A stretch of 64,000 nucleotides of DNA from Coleofasciculus chthonoplastes F2-STO-03 (GTDB lineage Bacteria; Cyanobacteriota; Cyanobacteriia; Cyanobacteriales; Coleofasciculaceae): assembly GCA_040222015.1 (NCBI GenBank), contig JAVJWO010000171.1, forward strand, positions 1 through 64,000, read 5' to 3'. Below, in pieces: positions 34,062 to 45,273 of this stretch. The position numbers and the translations under genes are program-made. Under the pieces are notes generated by a model that did no database searches, was not told where the DNA came from, and was given only the letters and a program-made list of their open reading frames with translations. Each line of letters starts with the position of its first letter. Position 1 is the first letter of the stretch.

Positions 34062-34967
34062 TTACCGATTTAGGGGTGCGATTCCCGCTAAATCCAGAAT
34101 CTGGGGAATCAAATCTTCTCGCTTAATCACCATAATATGCACACCCTGACATAATTGTCTCGCGAGTTGGATTTGTTCAGCGGCAATTTTCATCCCTTCT
34201 TGCAGTGGATCGGCGGCTTCTGCCAGTCGATCAATAATTGATTGGGGAATATTAACACCGGGAACGTATTTATTCAGAAATCGAGCATTTTTCGCCGATT
34301 TAATCAAAAATATCCCCGCTAAAATCGGCTTATCGGTGTCAGCCGCAATTTTATCCATAAACATTTCCAGCCGCTGGAAATCAGCAATCAGTTGACTCTG
34401 GAAAAACTGGGCACCCGCTTCTAGTTTACGCTCAAACCGACGTTGTAATCCAGACCAACTTTTTAACTGAGGGTCAACGGCGGCTCCAGCAAATAACTCT
34501 GTCTTTCCATCGGACAATGGCTTGTCATTAGCATCGAAACCGTTATTGAGTTTACTGATTAGCTGGAGCAAACGTACTGATTCTAGATCAAAAACGGGCT
34601 TGGCGTCAGGATGATCACCGACTTTTACCGGATCACCGGTGAGGGCAAGAATGTTACGAATGCCCAAAGCCTGCGCCCCCATCAGATCCGCCTGTAACCC
34701 CAATCGATTGCGATCGCGGCAAGCGATCTGACAGATCGGTTCTATCCCATGTTGGACTAAAATAGCGGCGGCGGCTAAAGAAGACATCCGCAACACTGCC
34801 CTAGATCCATCGGTAAGATTAACGGCATGAACGCGATTCTTTAGCGGTTTTGCCAAGTTAATCATCTGGCTAGCGTCACCTCCCTTGGGGGGGCTAACCT
34901 CCGCCGTAATTAAGAATTCCCCTGATTTAACGGCGTCTCGGAACGAGGGTTGAGTAAGGTTTGTCAT
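34062..34967 (-). CDS. metF: Methylenetetrahydrofolate reductase
   Basis: [37 protein letters not shown]. Confidence 0.9.
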
Positions 34968-35011
34968 TTGTCATTCGTCATTTGTCATTTGTCATTTGTC
35001 ATTTGTAATCC

Positions 35012-35137
35012 GCTTCCCCTGCTTCCCCTGCTTCCCCTGCTTCCCCTGCTTCCCCTGCTTCCCCTGCTTCCCCTGCTTCCCCTGCTTCCCCTGCTCCCCC
35101 TGCTTCCCCTGCTTCCCCTGCTCCCCCTGCTTCCCCA
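35012..35137. repeat. 9-mer STRR (GCTTCCCCT)n
   Basis: About 14 tandem copies; reverse-complement family of the yidD repeat. Confidence 0.95.
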
Positions 35138-35163
35138 TCTCCCAGACGCGCCATGGCACGTCT

Positions 35164-36174
35164 CTACAGAGGTGTAGAATACCCCATAGCTGCCTTGACT
35201 CGGGAGAGGGTTGAGAGAGCGATCGCTTCTGCTTTCTCCCGCCCTTGACGTAAGACTGACTCTAGATAACCCTTATCTTCCATCACGGCTTGATAGTTTT
35301 GCTGAATGGGTTTAAGGGCTTCAATTGTTGCCTCACTTAACACCGTTTTGAACTGTCCCCACCCCATATCCTGACATTCGGCGGCGACAGCTTCCTGGGT
35401 TTTCCCCGACAGTAGGGTATAAAGCGAGAGCAAGTTATGACACTCTGGACGTTCGGGATTGTCAAATTCTAGCCCCTTAATCGGATCAGTTTTACAGCGC
35501 TTAATTTTCTTTTGTATCTCCTCTGGAGAATCCAGCAGATTAATCCGACTCATCGGGGAGGGGTCAGATTTGGACATTTTTTTCGTGCCATCGGTGAGAC
35601 TCATCACCCGCGCTCCTTCTTTGCGGATTAAGGGTTCGGGCAATTTCAGCACGGGCTTTTTCTTGCTGCCATACTGGTCATTAATCCGAATCACAATATC
35701 ACGAGTCAGTTCGATATGTTGCTTTTGGTCTTCTCCTACGGGTACTAAATCCGCATCATACAGCAAAATATCGGCTGCCATCAGCACCGGGTAGTCTAGT
35801 AAACCTGTACTAACATTTTCGCCCTGCTTCACCGCCTTTTCTTTAAACTGAATCATCCGTTCTAGCCAATTTATAGGCGTGACGCAGTTAAACAGCCAGG
35901 TGAGTTCACAATGAGCGGGGATGTGAGATTGGACAAAGATGGTGGAATCGTTCAAATCAACCCCACAGGCTAGATATAACGCCGCGATGGTGTAGGTATC
36001 AGCGGCTAGAGTTGCTGGATTATGGGGCACCGTAATCGCGTGTAAATCGACGACGCAAAAGAAATTTTCATACTGACTCTGGGCTTCTACCCAATTACGG
36101 ATTGCTCCGAGATAGTTACCCAGGTGAAGATTTCCAGTTGGTTGAACTCCAGAGAGAACCCGCTTTTTGCCCAT
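35164..36174 (-). CDS. trpS: Tryptophan--tRNA ligase
   Basis: HLGN (HIGH), [26 protein letters not shown]. Confidence 0.97.
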
Positions 36175-37790: not shown

Positions 37791-39620
37791 CTACGATCCT
37801 GGTGTCTCTGGCGTTTCCGGTGTCTCTGGTGTTTCCGGTATCTCTGGCGTTTCCGGTATTTCCGGCGTTTCCGGTATTTCCGGTGTCTCTGGTGTTTCCG
37901 GTGTCTCTGGTGTTTCTGGTGTTTCCGGTGTTTCCGGGTTCTCTAGCTGACTGGATATGGTTTGAAACCGCTCAGGCGAACCCAGGGAGTAATCCTCTAG
38001 GCGAAAATCCCCAAAGGGTGTCTTTTCCAAGCGCGATCGCAAGGCTTCATCGACGATTACGCCAGGGGTTTTATTTTTCACGCCAATAATAATCATACTC
38101 CGTTGGTAAGACGTGGCATCTTGATCCGGCTGACAATTGTCTCCGTTAAATTGACCCAAATTTAATAGGCGATAATTTTCGACTGAGGCTACATCCCGAA
38201 ATAACTTTTTGGCTAACAGTTGGATTTGTTCGGCACGTTGAAAGGCTCGCCGTTCTTCTCCCACTGGTGTTCCTTCACAGGAAGCGGTTCCCACGGAAAT
38301 AATTTCACTGGGATTTTCCATCAGACTCTGTATCCCTTCCTCCTCCAAATTTGACCGTAACGCATCAATAGGGATCATCTGCTGATTATAGTTAACTTGA
38401 AACGTACTCCCCAGTTTCCATTTATATTCCCGTGAAAGTACCGCGACACTAAATTCAGCCGTTCTCCCTTCACTATCGGCTCCCTCCACGTAAGGAAAAT
38501 AATCCACATCTCCCTTTCTTTGCGGCGCTTGTGCTGGGGTAAATATCCAAACCCATTGGGAATTTAACCCGCCTGAACCGATAATCCCAATCCCTAAAAT
38601 GACCAGTATTGCTAACACTAAAATTAGCACTTGCCAGCGCCCAGAGTGGCGTTCTGGGGCGGGTTCGGGTTGAGGGAGGGGAGCGACTCCCACTTTCAGG
38701 GTTTCCGTCAATGTGGCGGGTTGATGCTCTAAGGTATCTAGGCGTTGTAAAATAGCTTGGGCAGTTGGCGGGCGATCGCGAACCTGTCGTGCCATTAATT
38801 CATCGATAAATTGCAATAAGTTTGGGGAAATCCCGGTGGTGTGATTCCGCCAGTTTAATTCATCGGTTTGAGCATCATACAACTGGCTGGGATGATGTCC
38901 GGTTAACAAAAAGACGAAAGTACGTCCCAAGGACAAGAAATCCGATTGTCTTACCGCTTCCCCATTCATTTGTTCGGGGGCGGTATACCCGGATGAAATA
39001 ACGGCTGTAATCCCGCCACCTGCGCCCACTTTAGCTAGATAGGTGCGGGTGACTTCCCGCGCTGTACCAAAATCAATTAACACCAACTGCCCATCAGGGC
39101 GGAGCATAATATTAGAGGGTTTAATATCCCGATGCAGATACTGCTGATCATGAATAAGCTGTAGAATAATCCCAAGCTGTTTTAACCACGCGATCGCTTG
39201 CGCCTCAGAAATGGGTCGATTGTGCTGTTGTTCTAACCACTGCTCTAAGGTGGGTCCGTCTATCTTTTCCATCACCAAGCAGTGCAACCCCAACCCATTC
39301 CGCGTCTGATAGAGGAACGAACTATCAACTTGCGGAATCCCCGGATGATTCAGTCGCCCTAACACAACCGCCTCTTGTTCAAACAATTCCACCGCCTTGG
39401 CGTCACTGTTGAGGTGATCCTTGAGAACTTTGAGGATTTTCGGCGTACTTCCTTCGTAGACTTCGTAGATATTGCCAAAGCCACTCTTATCACTAATCAG
39501 GCGCATCACCCGATAACGCCCATTCAGCAGCAATTCTGAGCCACAGCTTTGACAGAAGCGCTGATGCTCATTCTCTGAGGTGTCGGGTTTTGGGCAAGTG
39601 GGGTTAATGCAAAGGGGCAT
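37791..39620 (-). CDS. Ser/Thr protein kinase (4-Cys prefix, TM, extracytoplasmic domain, PET-repeat tail)
   Basis: CINPTC...CQSCG prefix, HRDIKPSN, DFG, GYTAPE, one TM helix, (PET)n terminus. Confidence 0.92.
   Translation of the reverse strand: MPLCINPTCPKPDTSENEHQRFCQSCGSELLLNGRYRVMRLISDKSGFGNIYEVYEGSTPKILKVLKDHLNSDAKAVELFEQEAVVLGRLNHPGIPQVDSSFLYQTRNGLGLHCLVMEKIDGPTLEQWLEQQHNRPISEAQAIAWLKQLGIILQLIHDQQYLHRDIKPSNIMLRPDGQLVLIDFGTAREVTRTYLAKVGAGGGITAVISSGYTAPEQMNGEAVRQSDFLSLGRTFVFLLTGHHPSQLYDAQTDELNWRNHTTGISPNLLQFIDELMARQVRDRPPTAQAILQRLDTLEHQPATLTETLKVGVAPLPQPEPAPERHSGRWQVLILVLAILVILGIGIIGSGGLNSQWVWIFTPAQAPQRKGDVDYFPYVEGADSEGRTAEFSVAVLSREYKWKLGSTFQVNYNQQMIPIDALRSNLEEEGIQSLMENPSEIISVGTASCEGTPVGEERRAFQRAEQIQLLAKKLFRDVASVENYRLLNLGQFNGDNCQPDQDATSYQRSMIIIGVKNKTPGVIVDEALRSRLEKTPFGDFRLEDYSLGSPERFQTISSQLENPETPETPETPETPETPETPEIPETPEIPETPEIPETPETPETPETPGS
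37798..37940. repeat. 9-mer tandem repeat encoding (P-E-T/I)n
   Basis: About 15 copies of a GGTGTTTCC-like unit. Confidence 0.9.
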
Positions 39621-39854
39621 AGGTGGCGATAGAATAGCGACAGTCTACCTATCTCACTATAAATGAATCGGGTTAAACCGCTTCACCGTTTACAGCTCAA
39701 CAGCCAGGGGAACCCGCCGCCATCTGTCCCACATCACCCATTCGCAGCAGCTCACAGCCTACCATTGGTGTAGGGGTTCTTTCATTGCCGTGTCCTTACT
39801 TTCATCTACCCCTTGTTAAAATTCAATAATCGACATCTACATAAAAAGAGAGCT

Positions 39855-40253
39855 ATGAATCAACGACCTGGGGAAGTAATTGCTATCTCTATTGCTTGTA
39901 TCTACTTGAGTATTTATTGGCTAATAGTTTGGTTTAGTCTACTCCTATTACAAACATGGGGCAATATAGAGATGGAGATACTTGTCGATTCGCCATTACA
40001 TTTTATAGGACAACTTATTTTTCGTATATTACCCGTTACTGCTGGATTATCAACGATAATTGTTTGTAGTTTTTTTAATTTAAATACCTGGTCATGGTTC
40101 GCAATGTTTTCGCTTCAAATTATCTATATTGCTTTTGCATTTTTCACGATGTTAATTGGCTTTGGTTTAATCATAATTATCAGCATTTTTGTCCCAGTTA
40201 TAATTTTAATCTTACTGAATAAATCAAGTGTGAAAGAAGCATTTAAATCTTAG
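39855..40253 (+). CDS. Hypothetical membrane protein (4 TM, AT-rich)
   Basis: Hydrophobic ORF starting MNQRPGEV and ending VKEAFKS. Confidence 0.65.
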   Translation: MNQRPGEVIAISIACIYLSIYWLIVWFSLLLLQTWGNIEMEILVDSPLHFIGQLIFRILPVTAGLSTIIVCSFFNLNTWSWFAMFSLQIIYIAFAFFTMLIGFGLIIIISIFVPVIILILLNKSSVKEAFKS

Positions 40254-40445
40254 CATTTTATACTAGAAAAATCTAGCTTTTCTAATATAACAAAAATTTC
40301 CAATAATCAAATTTGATATTGCCCGGAATTGGACACCAAAAGCGTTGCGATTTATAAGTAGGTAGGCACAATAAAAGTTAATGAAGCAGATCATCATTTG
40401 TCCTTAATGATGAAAGTCTTGTAGTGCGAGCATCTTGCTCGCTAC

Positions 40446-40548
40446 TATAGCAATCCTAAATAGGATGCAACAAGCGAAAAGCTCGAAAACCAGGCATAGC
40501 AAGGGTTTCATTTTTGAAAATTGCCACAACCTAAATAGGATTGCTATA
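40446..40548. mobile_element. TA-flanked MITE (TAGCAATCCTA...TAGGATTGCTA) nested in another repeat
   Basis: Terminal inverted repeats plus TA duplication; the empty site is visible at 7245-7283. Confidence 0.85.
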
Positions 40549-40958
40549 ATAGCCAATTTAAATGCATGACAGCTTACTTCGATACTAACCATATTAGCAA
40601 CTTGCCCAGCCACGCGATCGCACGCACCACGCACATTGACGCCAGCCTATCTCACCAGAAACTAGGGGTTTTGTCCTCCACGCGATCGCACAATCCTCTA
40701 TAGTGGTGTAATGCCTCATGCTGAGTCAATCCCTGGCGTAGTGGAAACAGAAGCACCATTTCATCGAGCTGTGCGATCGCGCTACTATGTATGGATAGTC
40801 AACTTAAGTCCTGTTGAAAAGGAAATCACGGCTAAACACAGTCCGCCTACGCGGACTAATGTGTCTGTGGAAACCCGCGCAGGCGGGTTTTGTTTGTGTA
40901 GCTGCGGTTTCAACCGCTATTAACTAATAAACCCTATTCCCTATTCCTTATTCCTATC

Positions 40959-43166
40959 ATGTCCAATCGCGCCGAAACCCTAGCTAAAATTATAGAACAA
41001 CGCCAACCCTTAGTTCAGAGCATCGCTGATGTCGAGGAACATCTGAGAAATCTGACCAACTTGCTCCGCTCCCTAGATCAACGGCGTCATATCTTAAAGG
41101 ATAAACTAGACCAACCCGAATTGTGCGATCGCCTCACCAAAATCGACTTTTCTCCATTGCGCTTACAGATTAGCACGCAACTGGAGCAGTTGCATCAACT
41201 TCGCGATCGCTTCTCCCGCCCTACCTTAAATATTGGCGTCGTTGGACTCATGGGTCAAGGGAAAAGTACCTTCCTCCAGAGTATCAGTGGACTCTCCGAT
41301 GACGAAATCCCCGCCCTCCGAGGTGGTGCTTGTACCGCCGTTCGCAGCACCATTTATCATCAACCCGGAGACACCTACGCCGAGGTAACCGTTCATTCTG
41401 AACAAACCTTTTTACCAGAAGTCATTCAACCCTATTACCAGGAATTAGACTTAGGCAATCCCCCCAACACCATAGATGAATTTGCCGGAACCTTGCCAGA
41501 ATTTTCGGGAACCGATGCAACCAAAAAGTCCATGTATGAGCATCTCAAAGAAGATTATCATAAACACTTACCCATGTACAGACATTTACTCCTGTCTGGC
41601 GCCCCCCGAAAACTCCCCCCCATTCCCAAAGAACGGATTCATGAATATGTCGCCCAACGCCGCTTTCCCCAAGGCGAACTAATTACCTTTGACCATTTAG
41701 CCGTTCGCGAAGTTAAAATCTTCTGTCCATTCAAAAATTCCGACGTCGGTAAAATTGCCCTAGTCGATGTACCCGGTTTAGGAGATACTCGTTTAGGCGA
41801 TGAAAAACTTATCCTAGAAACCATCGGAAAAGAGGTAGATTTAGTAATTTTTATTCGCCGCCCCGATAGACTCCGCTACGGATGGGAAAAACGAGATACA
41901 GACTTATATAATACCGCAGCCGAAGCATTAAACAATCTAGAGAATCGCTCGTTTATGATTCTTAACCATGTCACCGGAACCGATGATAACCTAGAAGCCT
42001 GTCAGAAACATCAAACCAGTATCCACGATAAACATATTGATGTCATCCGCTGCAAAATTGCCGATTGTTCTAATCCAGAGGAAACCAATGCGATACTCGA
42101 CTTAGTTCTCAACTATCTGGCAAATAACATCACCTACTTAGATGAACAACACGCCCGCGTTTACCAGAAAAAACTGAAGGAACTGCAAATCTTGATTAAT
42201 GCGGAACTAGAGAAAGCCCGTCTGGTTTGGTCAGGTGGCTTAATTGTTGATGATATCAATGAGCAAGGCAAATTTTTGCGCCTATTCAATAAACTATGGG
42301 CAAATCTAACGCGGGGACTAGAAGAATTATTAGATCAGCTCGATATCGCCAAGGATCGTGATGAACAAGATATCTTTAAACAACAGGTTGAATCCATTAT
42401 CCAAACCTGCAAAAGTGATACAGGCATCCCCACCGAGGAACCCATAAACGAAATCATTGCCCGACGCTTTGAAGAAGGAGATTGGCAAACGACTTATGCC
42501 AAATATCTCCATGAAATTCGCAATCATCTCACTCGCCATTTTCACGCTATGGACATGGGACTAAAAGAGTACGTGAAACAGGCAAAATCTCAAGTTACAG
42601 AGGTACTGGTAAATCAAGGAAATTTCGGAGAACTCACCCCAGCCAGAGGATCAGAATTTCTTAAAGCCATGGCAGAAATCATTCCTGATAATTTAGTCCG
42701 ACTCAAGCACGCTTTCCAAACCCTATCAAATTTTGAAATGTCCTATAAAGCCAACTTTCACTATCGGATTCGTCCTCATTTAGATAATCTTAATCCCGAT
42801 AAAACCAATCTCCGTTTGTCGGCATCAAATGCCATGGACTCGCGAGAGATTAAGGCACAGGAAATCTTCACCTATTTGGAAACATTACAAGAAGAAGCCT
42901 TGTTTAAATGTCAACACGCCTTAGAAGATTTTTACGGTGAACCGGGTCAAGCTGCGTTTGCTGAAGTTGAAGAATTTGTTGATCAGGTACTGCGAGCCAA
43001 AGATGTCAAGAATGAATGGCAAATCTTTTTATTCCAAGAAAAAGCTCAGGTTTGGTCGAAGGAATTTGGCGATAATCAAGAAGGTGATGATCGTCAACAA
43101 TGGTTATCATTAGTGGATCAATCAATAGCCGCTAACTCCCTAAAACAACTCCAGTTTTTGAATTGA
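40959..43166 (+). CDS. Dynamin-like GTPase
   Basis: N-terminal helical neck; G1 GLMGQGKST, G2 ACT, G3 DVPGLGD, G4 region ILNH; long helical C-terminus. Confidence 0.8.
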   Translation: MSNRAETLAKIIEQRQPLVQSIADVEEHLRNLTNLLRSLDQRRHILKDKLDQPELCDRLTKIDFSPLRLQISTQLEQLHQLRDRFSRPTLNIGVVGLMGQGKSTFLQSISGLSDDEIPALRGGACTAVRSTIYHQPGDTYAEVTVHSEQTFLPEVIQPYYQELDLGNPPNTIDEFAGTLPEFSGTDATKKSMYEHLKEDYHKHLPMYRHLLLSGAPRKLPPIPKERIHEYVAQRRFPQGELITFDHLAVREVKIFCPFKNSDVGKIALVDVPGLGDTRLGDEKLILETIGKEVDLVIFIRRPDRLRYGWEKRDTDLYNTAAEALNNLENRSFMILNHVTGTDDNLEACQKHQTSIHDKHIDVIRCKIADCSNPEETNAILDLVLNYLANNITYLDEQHARVYQKKLKELQILINAELEKARLVWSGGLIVDDINEQGKFLRLFNKLWANLTRGLEELLDQLDIAKDRDEQDIFKQQVESIIQTCKSDTGIPTEEPINEIIARRFEEGDWQTTYAKYLHEIRNHLTRHFHAMDMGLKEYVKQAKSQVTEVLVNQGNFGELTPARGSEFLKAMAEIIPDNLVRLKHAFQTLSNFEMSYKANFHYRIRPHLDNLNPDKTNLRLSASNAMDSREIKAQEIFTYLETLQEEALFKCQHALEDFYGEPGQAAFAEVEEFVDQVLRAKDVKNEWQIFLFQEKAQVWSKEFGDNQEGDDRQQWLSLVDQSIAANSLKQLQFLN

Positions 43167-43193
43167 TTTAGACTTGGCGCGATCAATTCGCTC

Positions 43194-43407
43194 GTAGTGA
43201 GCGCTTTAGCGCCGTTCGTAGTGAGCGCTTTAGCGCTCTTTCATAAGAACTGGATTTCAGCGACTCACCCCTACATCCTACATGAGATACACAGACTTGT
43301 TCTAGAATTATATTAAAATTAAAGGCAGGTTTTGTATAAAAGTTAAAAAAACAATCAATAGTAATCCCTAAACCCGCCCCTACAGACGTGTTATGGCGCG
43401 TCTCTAC
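43194..43407. repeat. REP cluster between the two GTPase genes
   Basis: Two GTAGTGAGCGCTTTAGCGC copies, one AAACCCGCCCCTAC doublet, one AGACG..CGTCTCTAC. Confidence 0.8.
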
Positions 43408-43424
43408 CCAAAGTATGGAGAAAG

Positions 43425-44414
43425 ATGCCTAAAGAACTCAATATAACCCTGCTTGGTGCGAGTGGTGTCGGAAAGACGACATTATTAACCTCAATGTATG
43501 AACAATTTGAAGCAACCAGTCGTCAAGCCAATCTACACTTAAAACCCGATATCGAAACAGCAGCCATTCTAGAACGGTATCTGGCTCAACTCAAAAGTTT
43601 AACCTACGAATTTAAGGCTGATGAACGCACCAAAGGGATTCGCGGCACCCTAGCCGTCGCTGGACCCGAATCCTTACCCTCTTACCGTTTTGATTTAGGC
43701 TTAAATGACAAAAAAGATGACCTGCGGCTACAGTTTCGAGATTATCCCGGCGGCTATATTTTACCCAGTGATGTAGCGGGAAGGCGATTTGTGCAGAAGA
43801 TGTTGCGGGAATGTGCCGCAGTTATCGTGGCAATTGATACGCCAGCATTGATGGAACTGAATGGCAGATGGCATGAAGTGAGAAATAAGCCCGATGAGAT
43901 TATGGCATTGTTTAAAACAGCCTACCAAAAGTTAGACGAACCCAAGTTGGTCATTTTGGCTCCTGTAAAGTGTGAAACCTATATGCAAGATGAAGTATCT
44001 GCCAACAATCTGATCAAACAGATTCAAGAAAAATATGCACCGTTACTGAAATTTTTTCAAGAGCCAAGACGAGCCGATAAAATTGCCGTCGTCACAACTC
44101 CGGTACAAACTGTTGGCTGTGTAGTATTCCTCAAAATAGAGGTCGAAAATTTGAATCAACCCCGCTTTTATTTTCGCAAGACGAGTTTTGATGCCAAATA
44201 TAGTCCCCAAGATAGCGAACAGTTGCTGCGGTATTTATTGCGATTTTTGTTAAAAGTCTATATTCAAAATCGAAATTGGTCAATGTTTAACGTCGTGCGG
44301 GAATTGTTCAACCCTGATGCTCAACTCAAGCAAGCGGTAGAGCAGTTTGCTCAAGGGTGCAAAACAAACGGAGGATTTGCTGTTCTCCAAGGTAAATCAC
44401 TATTAACACTGTAA
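43425..44414 (+). CDS. TRAFAC-class P-loop GTPase of unknown function
   Basis: G1 GASGVGKTT, G2 RGT, G3 DYPGG, G4-like VKCE. Confidence 0.75.
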   Translation: MPKELNITLLGASGVGKTTLLTSMYEQFEATSRQANLHLKPDIETAAILERYLAQLKSLTYEFKADERTKGIRGTLAVAGPESLPSYRFDLGLNDKKDDLRLQFRDYPGGYILPSDVAGRRFVQKMLRECAAVIVAIDTPALMELNGRWHEVRNKPDEIMALFKTAYQKLDEPKLVILAPVKCETYMQDEVSANNLIKQIQEKYAPLLKFFQEPRRADKIAVVTTPVQTVGCVVFLKIEVENLNQPRFYFRKTSFDAKYSPQDSEQLLRYLLRFLLKVYIQNRNWSMFNVVRELFNPDAQLKQAVEQFAQGCKTNGGFAVLQGKSLLTL

Positions 44415-44472
44415 TATTCGTCATTTGTCTATATAAATAAATCAAAACTATTTTACAAATAGGGATTAACTG

Positions 44473-45273
44473 ATGGATATCTATATCCAGAGTCGCGGCT
44501 TTGAACAAGATTATGATTATCGTTGGCTACAGGTTAGTCACGATGGGTCAATTCAACCCAAATTACCCCCCATTGGATTAACAGTACCCCATTTAATCGA
44601 TCGCGAAACACCAACGGTTGTGTTAGAACGATTAGTGGATAACCAGTTGCTGCTGCTACTGACAGGGCTTGAACCCAAAGGACGAGTCGATTTTCTAGAC
44701 CGCCAAATCCGCATCGCCATGGCTTGGGTGGGTGCAACGGCTGACGAACCCCTGCTGCGAAGTTTAGCTGCTTCTGCATTAATTGACGAAGACTATCACC
44801 GCCTCGTGGAACAACTCAATCAAGCGGTAGGTTTAGGGGGTGATTATGGTTTTCAGGTATCATTACCAAAGATGCAGCAATTGGTTACCATGGTACGAAA
44901 TCCCCAGCAACTGTCCAGTCAACCACCGACGCTCACCCCAAAAATTGGACGGAATATTGCGACACTGAGACATGAATTAGCCGAAGAACTACAAACCTGT
45001 CATTTACCACCAACTCCCGGTATTCTCATCGTCGTTACCGGAATTAAAAAGCCAGAAGCGCTGCAAGAGGCTGGTGTGTGGCGCAGTTTATCAACGCTAG
45101 TCGAGGGCGAGAGTTGGCAGGAGTTCTCCCCTAAATCCTGGTTTTTACCTGCTAATTTTCAGGAAGGAATCCCATCTAAGAATCCCCTAATTTGGCTTAT
45201 GGTATTGATATCGATTCTCTCCTATTGGTTAGCATCCCTCGTAAAACTACTCTCTAGCCAAAAAGATACTTAG
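44473..45273 (+). CDS. Hypothetical protein with C-terminal TM anchor
   Basis: Starts IYIQSRG..QDYDYRW; motif RVDFLDRQIR; hydrophobic tail LIWLMVLISILSYWLASLV; AGGGA upstream. Confidence 0.75.
   Translation: MDIYIQSRGFEQDYDYRWLQVSHDGSIQPKLPPIGLTVPHLIDRETPTVVLERLVDNQLLLLLTGLEPKGRVDFLDRQIRIAMAWVGATADEPLLRSLAASALIDEDYHRLVEQLNQAVGLGGDYGFQVSLPKMQQLVTMVRNPQQLSSQPPTLTPKIGRNIATLRHELAEELQTCHLPPTPGILIVVTGIKKPEALQEAGVWRSLSTLVEGESWQEFSPKSWFLPANFQEGIPSKNPLIWLMVLISILSYWLASLVKLLSSQKDT

Follow-up and report, generated by a model that had tools for sequence, protein, structure and literature searches.

What do three adjacent genes of the cyanobacterium Coleofasciculus chthonoplastes F2-STO-03 do, and do they belong together? 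The genes were found in a stretch of 64,000 nucleotides (contig JAVJWO010000171.1, positions 1 to 64,000), referred to here as the window. Open reading frames (ORFs) of 735, 329 and 266 amino acids (aa), all on the forward strand as the initial annotation had described them, encode a dynamin-like large GTPase (gene 1), a small GTPase (gene 2) and a third protein with a predicted membrane helix (gene 3). The trio was found to be a conserved, patchily distributed unit, and it is likely a conflict (anti-invader) module that is switched by GTP and acts at the cell membrane, probably limiting the damage done by infection. The interpretation offered by the initial annotation, a candidate defence or membrane-remodelling system, is as a whole partly supported; added to it here is the finding that dynamins of relatives are fused to HEPN and STAND modules.

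The three genes occur together far beyond chance. The small GTPase was present in 24 of the 401 cyanobacterial genomes sampled, at 27 places, and the dynamin-like gene stood directly upstream at every one of the 27; dynamin was found in all 24 of these genomes and in 31/401 overall. Gene 3 came next after the small GTPase at 26/26 places examined, namely in the window and at the 25 loci fetched, including a weak match at L066 (E=2.6e-5) and the locus L064, which is interrupted by an insertion, with G341:C100 left out. No conserved fourth gene was found across the 25 fetched loci. The trio recurs in other genomes and is not universal. In metagenomes, at least 30 loci were found with the small GTPase; dynamin was upstream in 25, the other five ending short there, and gene 3 was matched at E<=1e-3 in 23. 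Components of the cassette are tandemly duplicated in L082, L090, L096 and L097. The trio was also found in Nonomuraea and on plasmids: on one of Aulosira, typed as conjugative, and on one of Streptomyces, where the third gene is divergent. Relatives of the small GTPase were looked for on viral contigs and none were found. Within genera the small GTPase is patchy (0/19, 1/5, 2/9 and 1/6 genomes), and the window query gave no match in 220 genomes from 12 further families. Homologues at 93–96% identity are found in Coleofasciculus genomes.

The dynamin might be an independent passenger beside a two-gene module of GTPase and partner, with no functional coupling. Lone dynamins are indeed common, and other genes stand between dynamin and GTPase in L007, L009, L011 and L085. 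Against this, dynamin is present in 24/24 genomes with the small GTPase and directly upstream at 27/27 places, likewise in actinobacteria, and in L072 and L113 this dynamin family stands before a DO-GTPase of another kind, which makes a mere passenger very improbable. The intervening genes at the Symploca/Caldora loci L007:10272-14367 and L009:5766-12897 are two nucleoside-phosphorylase-domain genes on the opposite strand, one of them a TPR fusion.

Gene 1 passes the Pfam Dynamin_N model (PF00350) with 30.3 bits at a cut-off of 27. Dynamin-type motifs G1 to G4 had been read in its product. Upon alignment of 47 homologues, G1 (GLMGQGKS), G2 (T126) and G3 (DVPG) were invariant or nearly so, but G4 is degenerate, with the asparagine N336 alone kept and no conserved K-x-D, so that the reading of all four motifs was slightly overstated. 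The product has no hydrophobic membrane segment (best 19-residue Kyte-Doolittle (KD) score 0.79). Among the 60 matches listed in a PDB profile search with gene 1, no bacterial dynamin was found; Era, IRG GTPases and apolipoprotein helices were there.

A conflict role is favoured because the dynamin of relatives bears a swappable N-terminal HEPN RNase and/or AAA_35 module, AAA_35 being a STAND family. The patchy distribution, the plasmid copies, the tandem duplications, the variable gene 3 tails and the contents of the slot upstream of the cassette point the same way. Among the 120 dynamin homologues listed, AAA_35 is fused at the N-terminus in 17 and a Swt1-like HEPN domain with R-x4-H in three. 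At L061, an AAA_35-HEPN-dynamin with R-x4-H is directly followed by the GTPase and gene 3, and the dynamin of L095 carries a decayed HEPN. A five-gene block, in the order AAA_35 protein, AAA_35-dynamin, GTPase, gene 3 and AAA-vWA-like protein, was found at L010, L011, L014, L061 and L095, with the dynamin split in L011 and the last gene shortened in L014. In the window dynamin the same N-terminal slot is empty, with no recognisable toxic domain. Quick trees placed it in a clade with 100% support whose other four rows are all fused forms. For groups that were delimited by their domains once a first tree was known, and with long-branch rows excluded from the later trees including the topology test, a 16-row quick tree rejected a single clade for the HEPN-fused (p-AU 0.00036), the AAA_35-fused (3e-57) and all fused dynamins (1e-6). 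This rejection argues that the HEPN and STAND modules were gained or lost repeatedly on the dynamin, in either direction. The HEPN-dynamin P0318 and the small-GTPase paralogues P0060, P0061 and P0076 all have a longest contig of 160,021 and perhaps belong to one expanded locus.

The GTPase core described for gene 2 (GASGVGKTT, DYPGG, VKCE) is present, and K17, T75 and the DYPG and P-V-K-C-E motifs are conserved in the family; its G4 motif, like that of gene 1, is deviant. A kinship to paired-GTPase conflict systems, suggested earlier, was upheld at the level of the family. The window protein itself matches DO-GTPase2 (PF19993) at the P-loop only, with 21.4 bits, below the cut-off of 27; 55/57 family members match PF19993 at E<=1e-3, and divergent members exceed the cut-off across about 200 aa. 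The first Atlas matches of gene 2 (0.96–0.98) carry PF19993 in 62–82% of members. An hhalign comparison with one canonical DO-GTPase member was not significant. At the Walker-B glutamate position only 4/57 family members have Glu (DYPGG in the window), versus DTAGE in two canonical DO-GTPases. No zinc ribbon and no transmembrane (TM) segment were found in the product. Gene 2 is read as a divergent DO-GTPase relative without the Walker-B glutamate. Its structural model (pLDDT 86) is Ras-like, with tied fold matches to the Asgard RagA-like LokiRagO (Z 14.1, root-mean-square deviation (rmsd) 3.1, 177 residues), YcjX (Z 13.8) and Arl2 (Z 13.8); the alignment with YcjX was the longest (247 residues, rmsd 4.7).

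For gene 3 no Pfam family was matched. A profile search placed it in an unnamed family, which comprises at least 482 clusters (50% identity) and in which the first 220 residues are conserved and the tails vary from 11 to 310 aa. The C-terminal TM helix seen earlier was confirmed as a family trait, a hydrophobic helix (KD>=2.0) occurring in 113/142 members. Among 35 hand-picked long-tailed members, six carry WD40, one each an Ig, a peptidoglycan-binding and a DUF6174 domain, and 26 nothing recognised. One family member, P0171, has two tandem cores. The model of the gene 3 product (pLDDT 93) consists of a weakly longin-like N-terminal domain and a small alpha/beta domain. Its top fold rows were mostly longin domains, the best a Lokiarchaeal roadblock-longin protein (Z 5.2, rmsd 4.4, 134 residues), followed by FNIP2/FLCN, Lst4 and DENND10 (Z 4.4–5.1), all below the tool's trust level; TagF aligned across both domains (Z 3.5, 169 residues). 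Foldseek gave no match at E<=0.001, and PDB profile searches returned nothing useful and no sequence similarity to longin regulators. With longin rows recurring among the model's matches, the likeness is treated as a lead.

Membership of gene 3 in GAP1 was considered and not supported, although the two may be remotely homologous. A weak Atlas pointer to GAP1-N was obtained (0.84, GAP1-N2 in 16% of members), and a D-x-x-(G)-R hairpin motif lines up with GAP1-N, by eye only. The GAP1 Pfam models gave no match at E<=1 for the gene 3 product or for 26 other partner N-termini, with a canonical control at 70 bits, and comparisons with GAP1-N2 by hhalign and local hmmsearch, made with shallow templates of 1–3 sequences, were negative.

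Longin domains regulate Rag/Rab GTPases, and the pairing of a Ras-like GTPase with a putatively longin-like partner resembles that of Rag/Rab proteins with FLCN-FNIP, Lst4, GATOR1, DENN and the Asgard roadblock-longin proteins. The cassette differs from these in having no sequence similarity to them, in being bacterial, in its single membrane helix and in the coupling to a dynamin-like gene. A Rag/Rab-like signalling or trafficking module for development in complex bacteria (septum, hormogonium, vesicle or thylakoid remodelling) could be read from the top fold matches of both proteins and from the failure to find the small GTPase in the 220 genomes of 12 other families. Z scores of 11–14 are, however, common to many unrelated Ras-like proteins and the longin scores reach 5.2 at most, most related genomes have no trio, and toxin-type fusions suit development poorly, so that a developmental role is improbable.

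No named system accounts for the trio, as the initial annotation had also concluded: PADLOC and NCBIfam searches gave no match above noise, that to PADLOC LeoBC reaching E=0.0085 only. The closest known systems are the DO-GTPase/GAP1 systems, which the available text of Kaur, Burroughs, Iyer and Aravind 2020 (PMC7159879) describes as 'GTPase-centric' predicted conflict systems with a Walker-B glutamate, a GAP1 protein of three domains and a further gene, which encodes GASH in the N1 type and FNIII repeats in the N2 type. The cassette works like them in that a TRAFAC GTPase gene is followed by a dedicated, often membrane-anchored partner gene, and in being mobile, at times with paralogous GTPase copies. 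It departs from them in three features: Walker B is DYPGG without Glu (and the GTPase has no zinc ribbon or TM), the partner is short (a 220-aa core and membrane helix) with no match to GAP1-N/M/C, and no GASH or FNIII gene was found by a Pfam scan of the neighbours, whereas a canonical control locus has an fn3 protein. The cassette also has a constant dynamin-like gene, and the variable effector modules typical of DO-GTPase/GAP1 systems were found in its relatives only, on the dynamin (HEPN, AAA_35), with none in the window copy. It was found here mainly in cyanobacteria, from which the available text of PMC7159879 calls the described systems 'nearly completely absent'. The word 'dynamin' has no occurrence in the main text of that paper, and neither 'dynamin' nor 'GAP1' occurs in the available text of Kaur 2021 (PMC8195603). 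A canonical GAP1-N2 DO-GTPase system was observed in cyanobacterium G289 (L106:5116-14822), its second GTPase fused to an ARC6-like IMS domain.

A second cassette type was found at L072:6989-14895 and L113:6567-14917, on a Stanieria plasmid and in G263. The same dynamin family is followed there by a different, DO-GTPase1-like GTPase, a protein of about 1000 aa and one of 470–510 aa, the two large proteins having no Pfam match. With 47.7 bits, the GTPase of L113 exceeds the DO-GTPase1 cut-off.

Protection against phage by other bacterial dynamins is described in the available texts on Eleos (10.1101/2022.05.11.491447) and B. subtilis DynA (PMC8844932). The cassette shares with Eleos/LeoABC and DynA a dynamin-like GTPase, with two GTPase genes in a row and a precedent in membrane-related phage protection. 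Eleos/LeoABC consists of two dynamins and stands beside defence genes in 60% of cases according to the available text of Millman et al. (10.1101/2022.05.11.491447), whereas the cassette has a single dynamin, its second GTPase is a small DO-GTPase relative and its flanks are not enriched in defence genes. The cyanobacterial dynamin clades of PMC5827413 (KGK, Tandem A/B, HSR1, chaperone) are likewise Dynamin_N proteins with conserved gene contexts, but none is named in the main-text description with a small GTPase and membrane partner downstream. No description of the dynamin, small GTPase and gene 3 trio was found in the open literature, which excludes subscription papers. Unpublished profilin-longin/GTPase systems are mentioned in the available text of a 2026 ParA preprint (10.64898/2026.10.19.760177), so the idea may be in preparation elsewhere.

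A mechanism can be built on the fixed gene order, the P-loop, G2 and G3 conserved in both GTPases, the membrane helix and the HEPN/STAND fusions; binding, trigger and output are inferred. It is given a rough probability of 55% that the gene 3 product holds the small GTPase at the membrane and regulates it, and that this switch recruits the dynamin-like protein, by which membrane is remodelled or sealed and, where fused, the HEPN RNase is clustered. The gene 3 product would be inserted in the membrane, its conserved core facing the cytoplasm and its variable tail the outside, and would dock or regulate the small GTPase, by analogy with longin-type domains and Rag/Rab. Envelope damage or the entry of an invader would flip the GTPase, which would then recruit the dynamin-like protein, itself devoid of a membrane segment, and let it polymerise on the membrane. 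The polymer would seal or cut off the damaged membrane or cell; in fused versions it would cluster the HEPN RNase and the cell would be shut down, and the window copy would rely on dynamin alone. The trio may have the filament-specific role in sealing or sacrifice suggested by the initial annotation. A more specific proposal is tentative and at present rather doubtful: a pathway of bacterial immunity or damage control, where a dynamin with an exchangeable HEPN/STAND N-terminal slot would be governed by a Ras/Rag-like switch together with a longin-type regulator anchored in the membrane. Elsewhere, regulation of a dynamin by a small GTPase is typical of membrane traffic in eukaryotes and of interferon-induced GTPases.

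Several observations weigh against a conflict role. Most cassette copies, the window's included, have no effector domain. The trio is kept in 8/9 genomes of the window's genus, with gene 3 at 89–92% identity, a stability unusual for a defence system. The dynamin family is often found alone, at seven of eight further loci and as a paralogue of the window dynamin (43% identity) on contig C76. The longin match of the modelled gene 3 product is weak, its best Z of 5.2 being below the level that the tool regards as meaningful. The expected enrichment near defence genes was not found: 15/135 flank ORFs (25 loci) matched PADLOC at E<=1e-15 versus 12/131 in 20 control stretches of the same genomes, in a comparison with mechanically chosen ORFs, non-independent kin and controls often on the same contig, and most of the matches were generic (kinase, ABC or Uma2-like).

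The unenriched flanks, the stability within the genus and the effector-free copies would also suit a module for general envelope stress or membrane repair (osmotic, desiccation, antibiotic), similar to DynA surveillance or to YcjX linked to the phage shock protein (PSP) response, with defence secondary where HEPN or STAND is fused. The YcjX GTPase of PSP-linked operons pairs with a membrane protein, and YcjX gave the longest structural alignment with the cassette GTPase. No PspA or PSP context was seen by the cassette, a marginal DUF463 match was found only in a distant relative, and to our knowledge YcjX has no dynamin partner. For a DO-GTPase linked to PSP, a role in membrane stress is predicted in 10.1101/2020.09.24.301986. 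A general stress module is possible but less likely, given that the small GTPase is missing from 377/401 genomes with this query and patchy within genera, that the HEPN and STAND modules appear to have been gained or lost repeatedly, and that tandem paralogues, variable gene 3 tails and plasmid copies occur. The conflict module at the membrane is retained as the likely reading.

Some lone dynamins have neighbours of their own. The paralogue on C76 (G000:C76:4807-7173) adjoins a filamentous-haemagglutinin-like gene near the contig end, with a similar pair on a Calothrix plasmid (L071). Another lies inside a vWA / PP2C phosphatase / kinase-TPR operon (L108:591-11315), and a third is directly downstream of genes that look, by eye from the sequence, like those of a contractile-injection (phage-tail-like) system (L109:428-8953).

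The features of the cassette and its immediate surroundings are listed in Table 1.

Table 1. Features of the three-gene cassette and adjoining repeats (positions in the window).
Feature	Position	Strand	Basis or description
Multi-copy repeats in variable slot upstream of cassette	40354..40934		Context, not core
Gene 1, dynamin-like large GTPase, 735 aa	40959..43166	+	ORF and Pfam Dynamin_N; N-terminal helical region, GTPase domain (K102, T126, D270-x-x-G, N336), long C-terminal helical part
Gap between genes 1 and 2	43167..43424		258 bp, enlarged by multi-copy repeats
Gene 2, small TRAFAC-type GTPase, 329 aa	43425..44414	+	Divergent DO-GTPase2 relative; K17, T75, DYPGG, PVKCE, PVQTVG; Ras-like fold with insertions (predicted model)
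Gene 3, third protein, 266 aa	44473..45273	+	Unnamed family; core of about 220 aa conserved, followed by a linker, the membrane helix and a tail of very few residues
Predicted membrane helix of gene 3 product, residues 239-257	45187..45243	+	KD 2.26; model helix 238-263

Upstream, where a nest of miniature inverted-repeat transposable elements (MITEs) had been reported, multi-copy repeats lie at about 40354-40574 and 40814-40934, with up to 74 other matches in the genome; they are at most putative MITEs. Repeats within the gap between genes 1 and 2 have up to 40 other genome matches. This gap measures 91–372 bp at six same-genus loci and mostly less than 80 bp in other cyanobacteria.

The slot between the upstream kinase and dynamin (39621-40958) is an insertion hotspot. 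It holds a 146-aa membrane ORF in the window and in L004, and at the same-genus loci L001, L002, L005 and L006 (4/5 informative loci) DUF1828+DUF6978, a 1440-aa NACHT protein, a YhcG nuclease or a type I restriction-modification system. The kinase (37791-39620, reverse strand), which adjoins the cassette site within the genus only, is a Ser/Thr kinase with a membrane helix and a tail of ETP repeats, and its C-terminal domain is unrecognised; short tandem repeats resembling this tail lie at about 34950-35200.

Downstream, the genes assigned to exopolysaccharide synthesis had been called unrelated, and this held. Of the five informative relatives, L001, L002, L004 and L005 have no glycosyltransferases at the site and L006 has a remnant of 148 aa, so that these genes are regarded as unrelated to the trio. 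As a possible part of the cassette they were rejected, being ordinary GT4/GT2 enzymes with a weak match to GT4-conflict and not kept beside the trio.

The whole trio is covered in four metatranscriptome assemblies, and three assemblies join gene 2 to gene 3; this coverage may come from DNA, since intergenic DNA is covered as well and contigs of more than 70 kb are present. Scans for promoters and terminators gave no more than expected by chance (14 vs 10.6 and 4 vs 5.5, respectively).

For the predicted DO-GTPase systems, and for the way in which bacterial dynamins are activated, the compact trio of 4.3 kb, without a toxic domain, offers a simple test case. It also brings GTPase-centric systems into cyanobacteria and contributes an unnamed family comprising at least 482 clusters. 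If the gene 3 product were a longin-type guanine nucleotide exchange factor or GTPase-activating protein, a small GTPase, a longin regulator and a dynamin would be brought together in one bacterial pathway.

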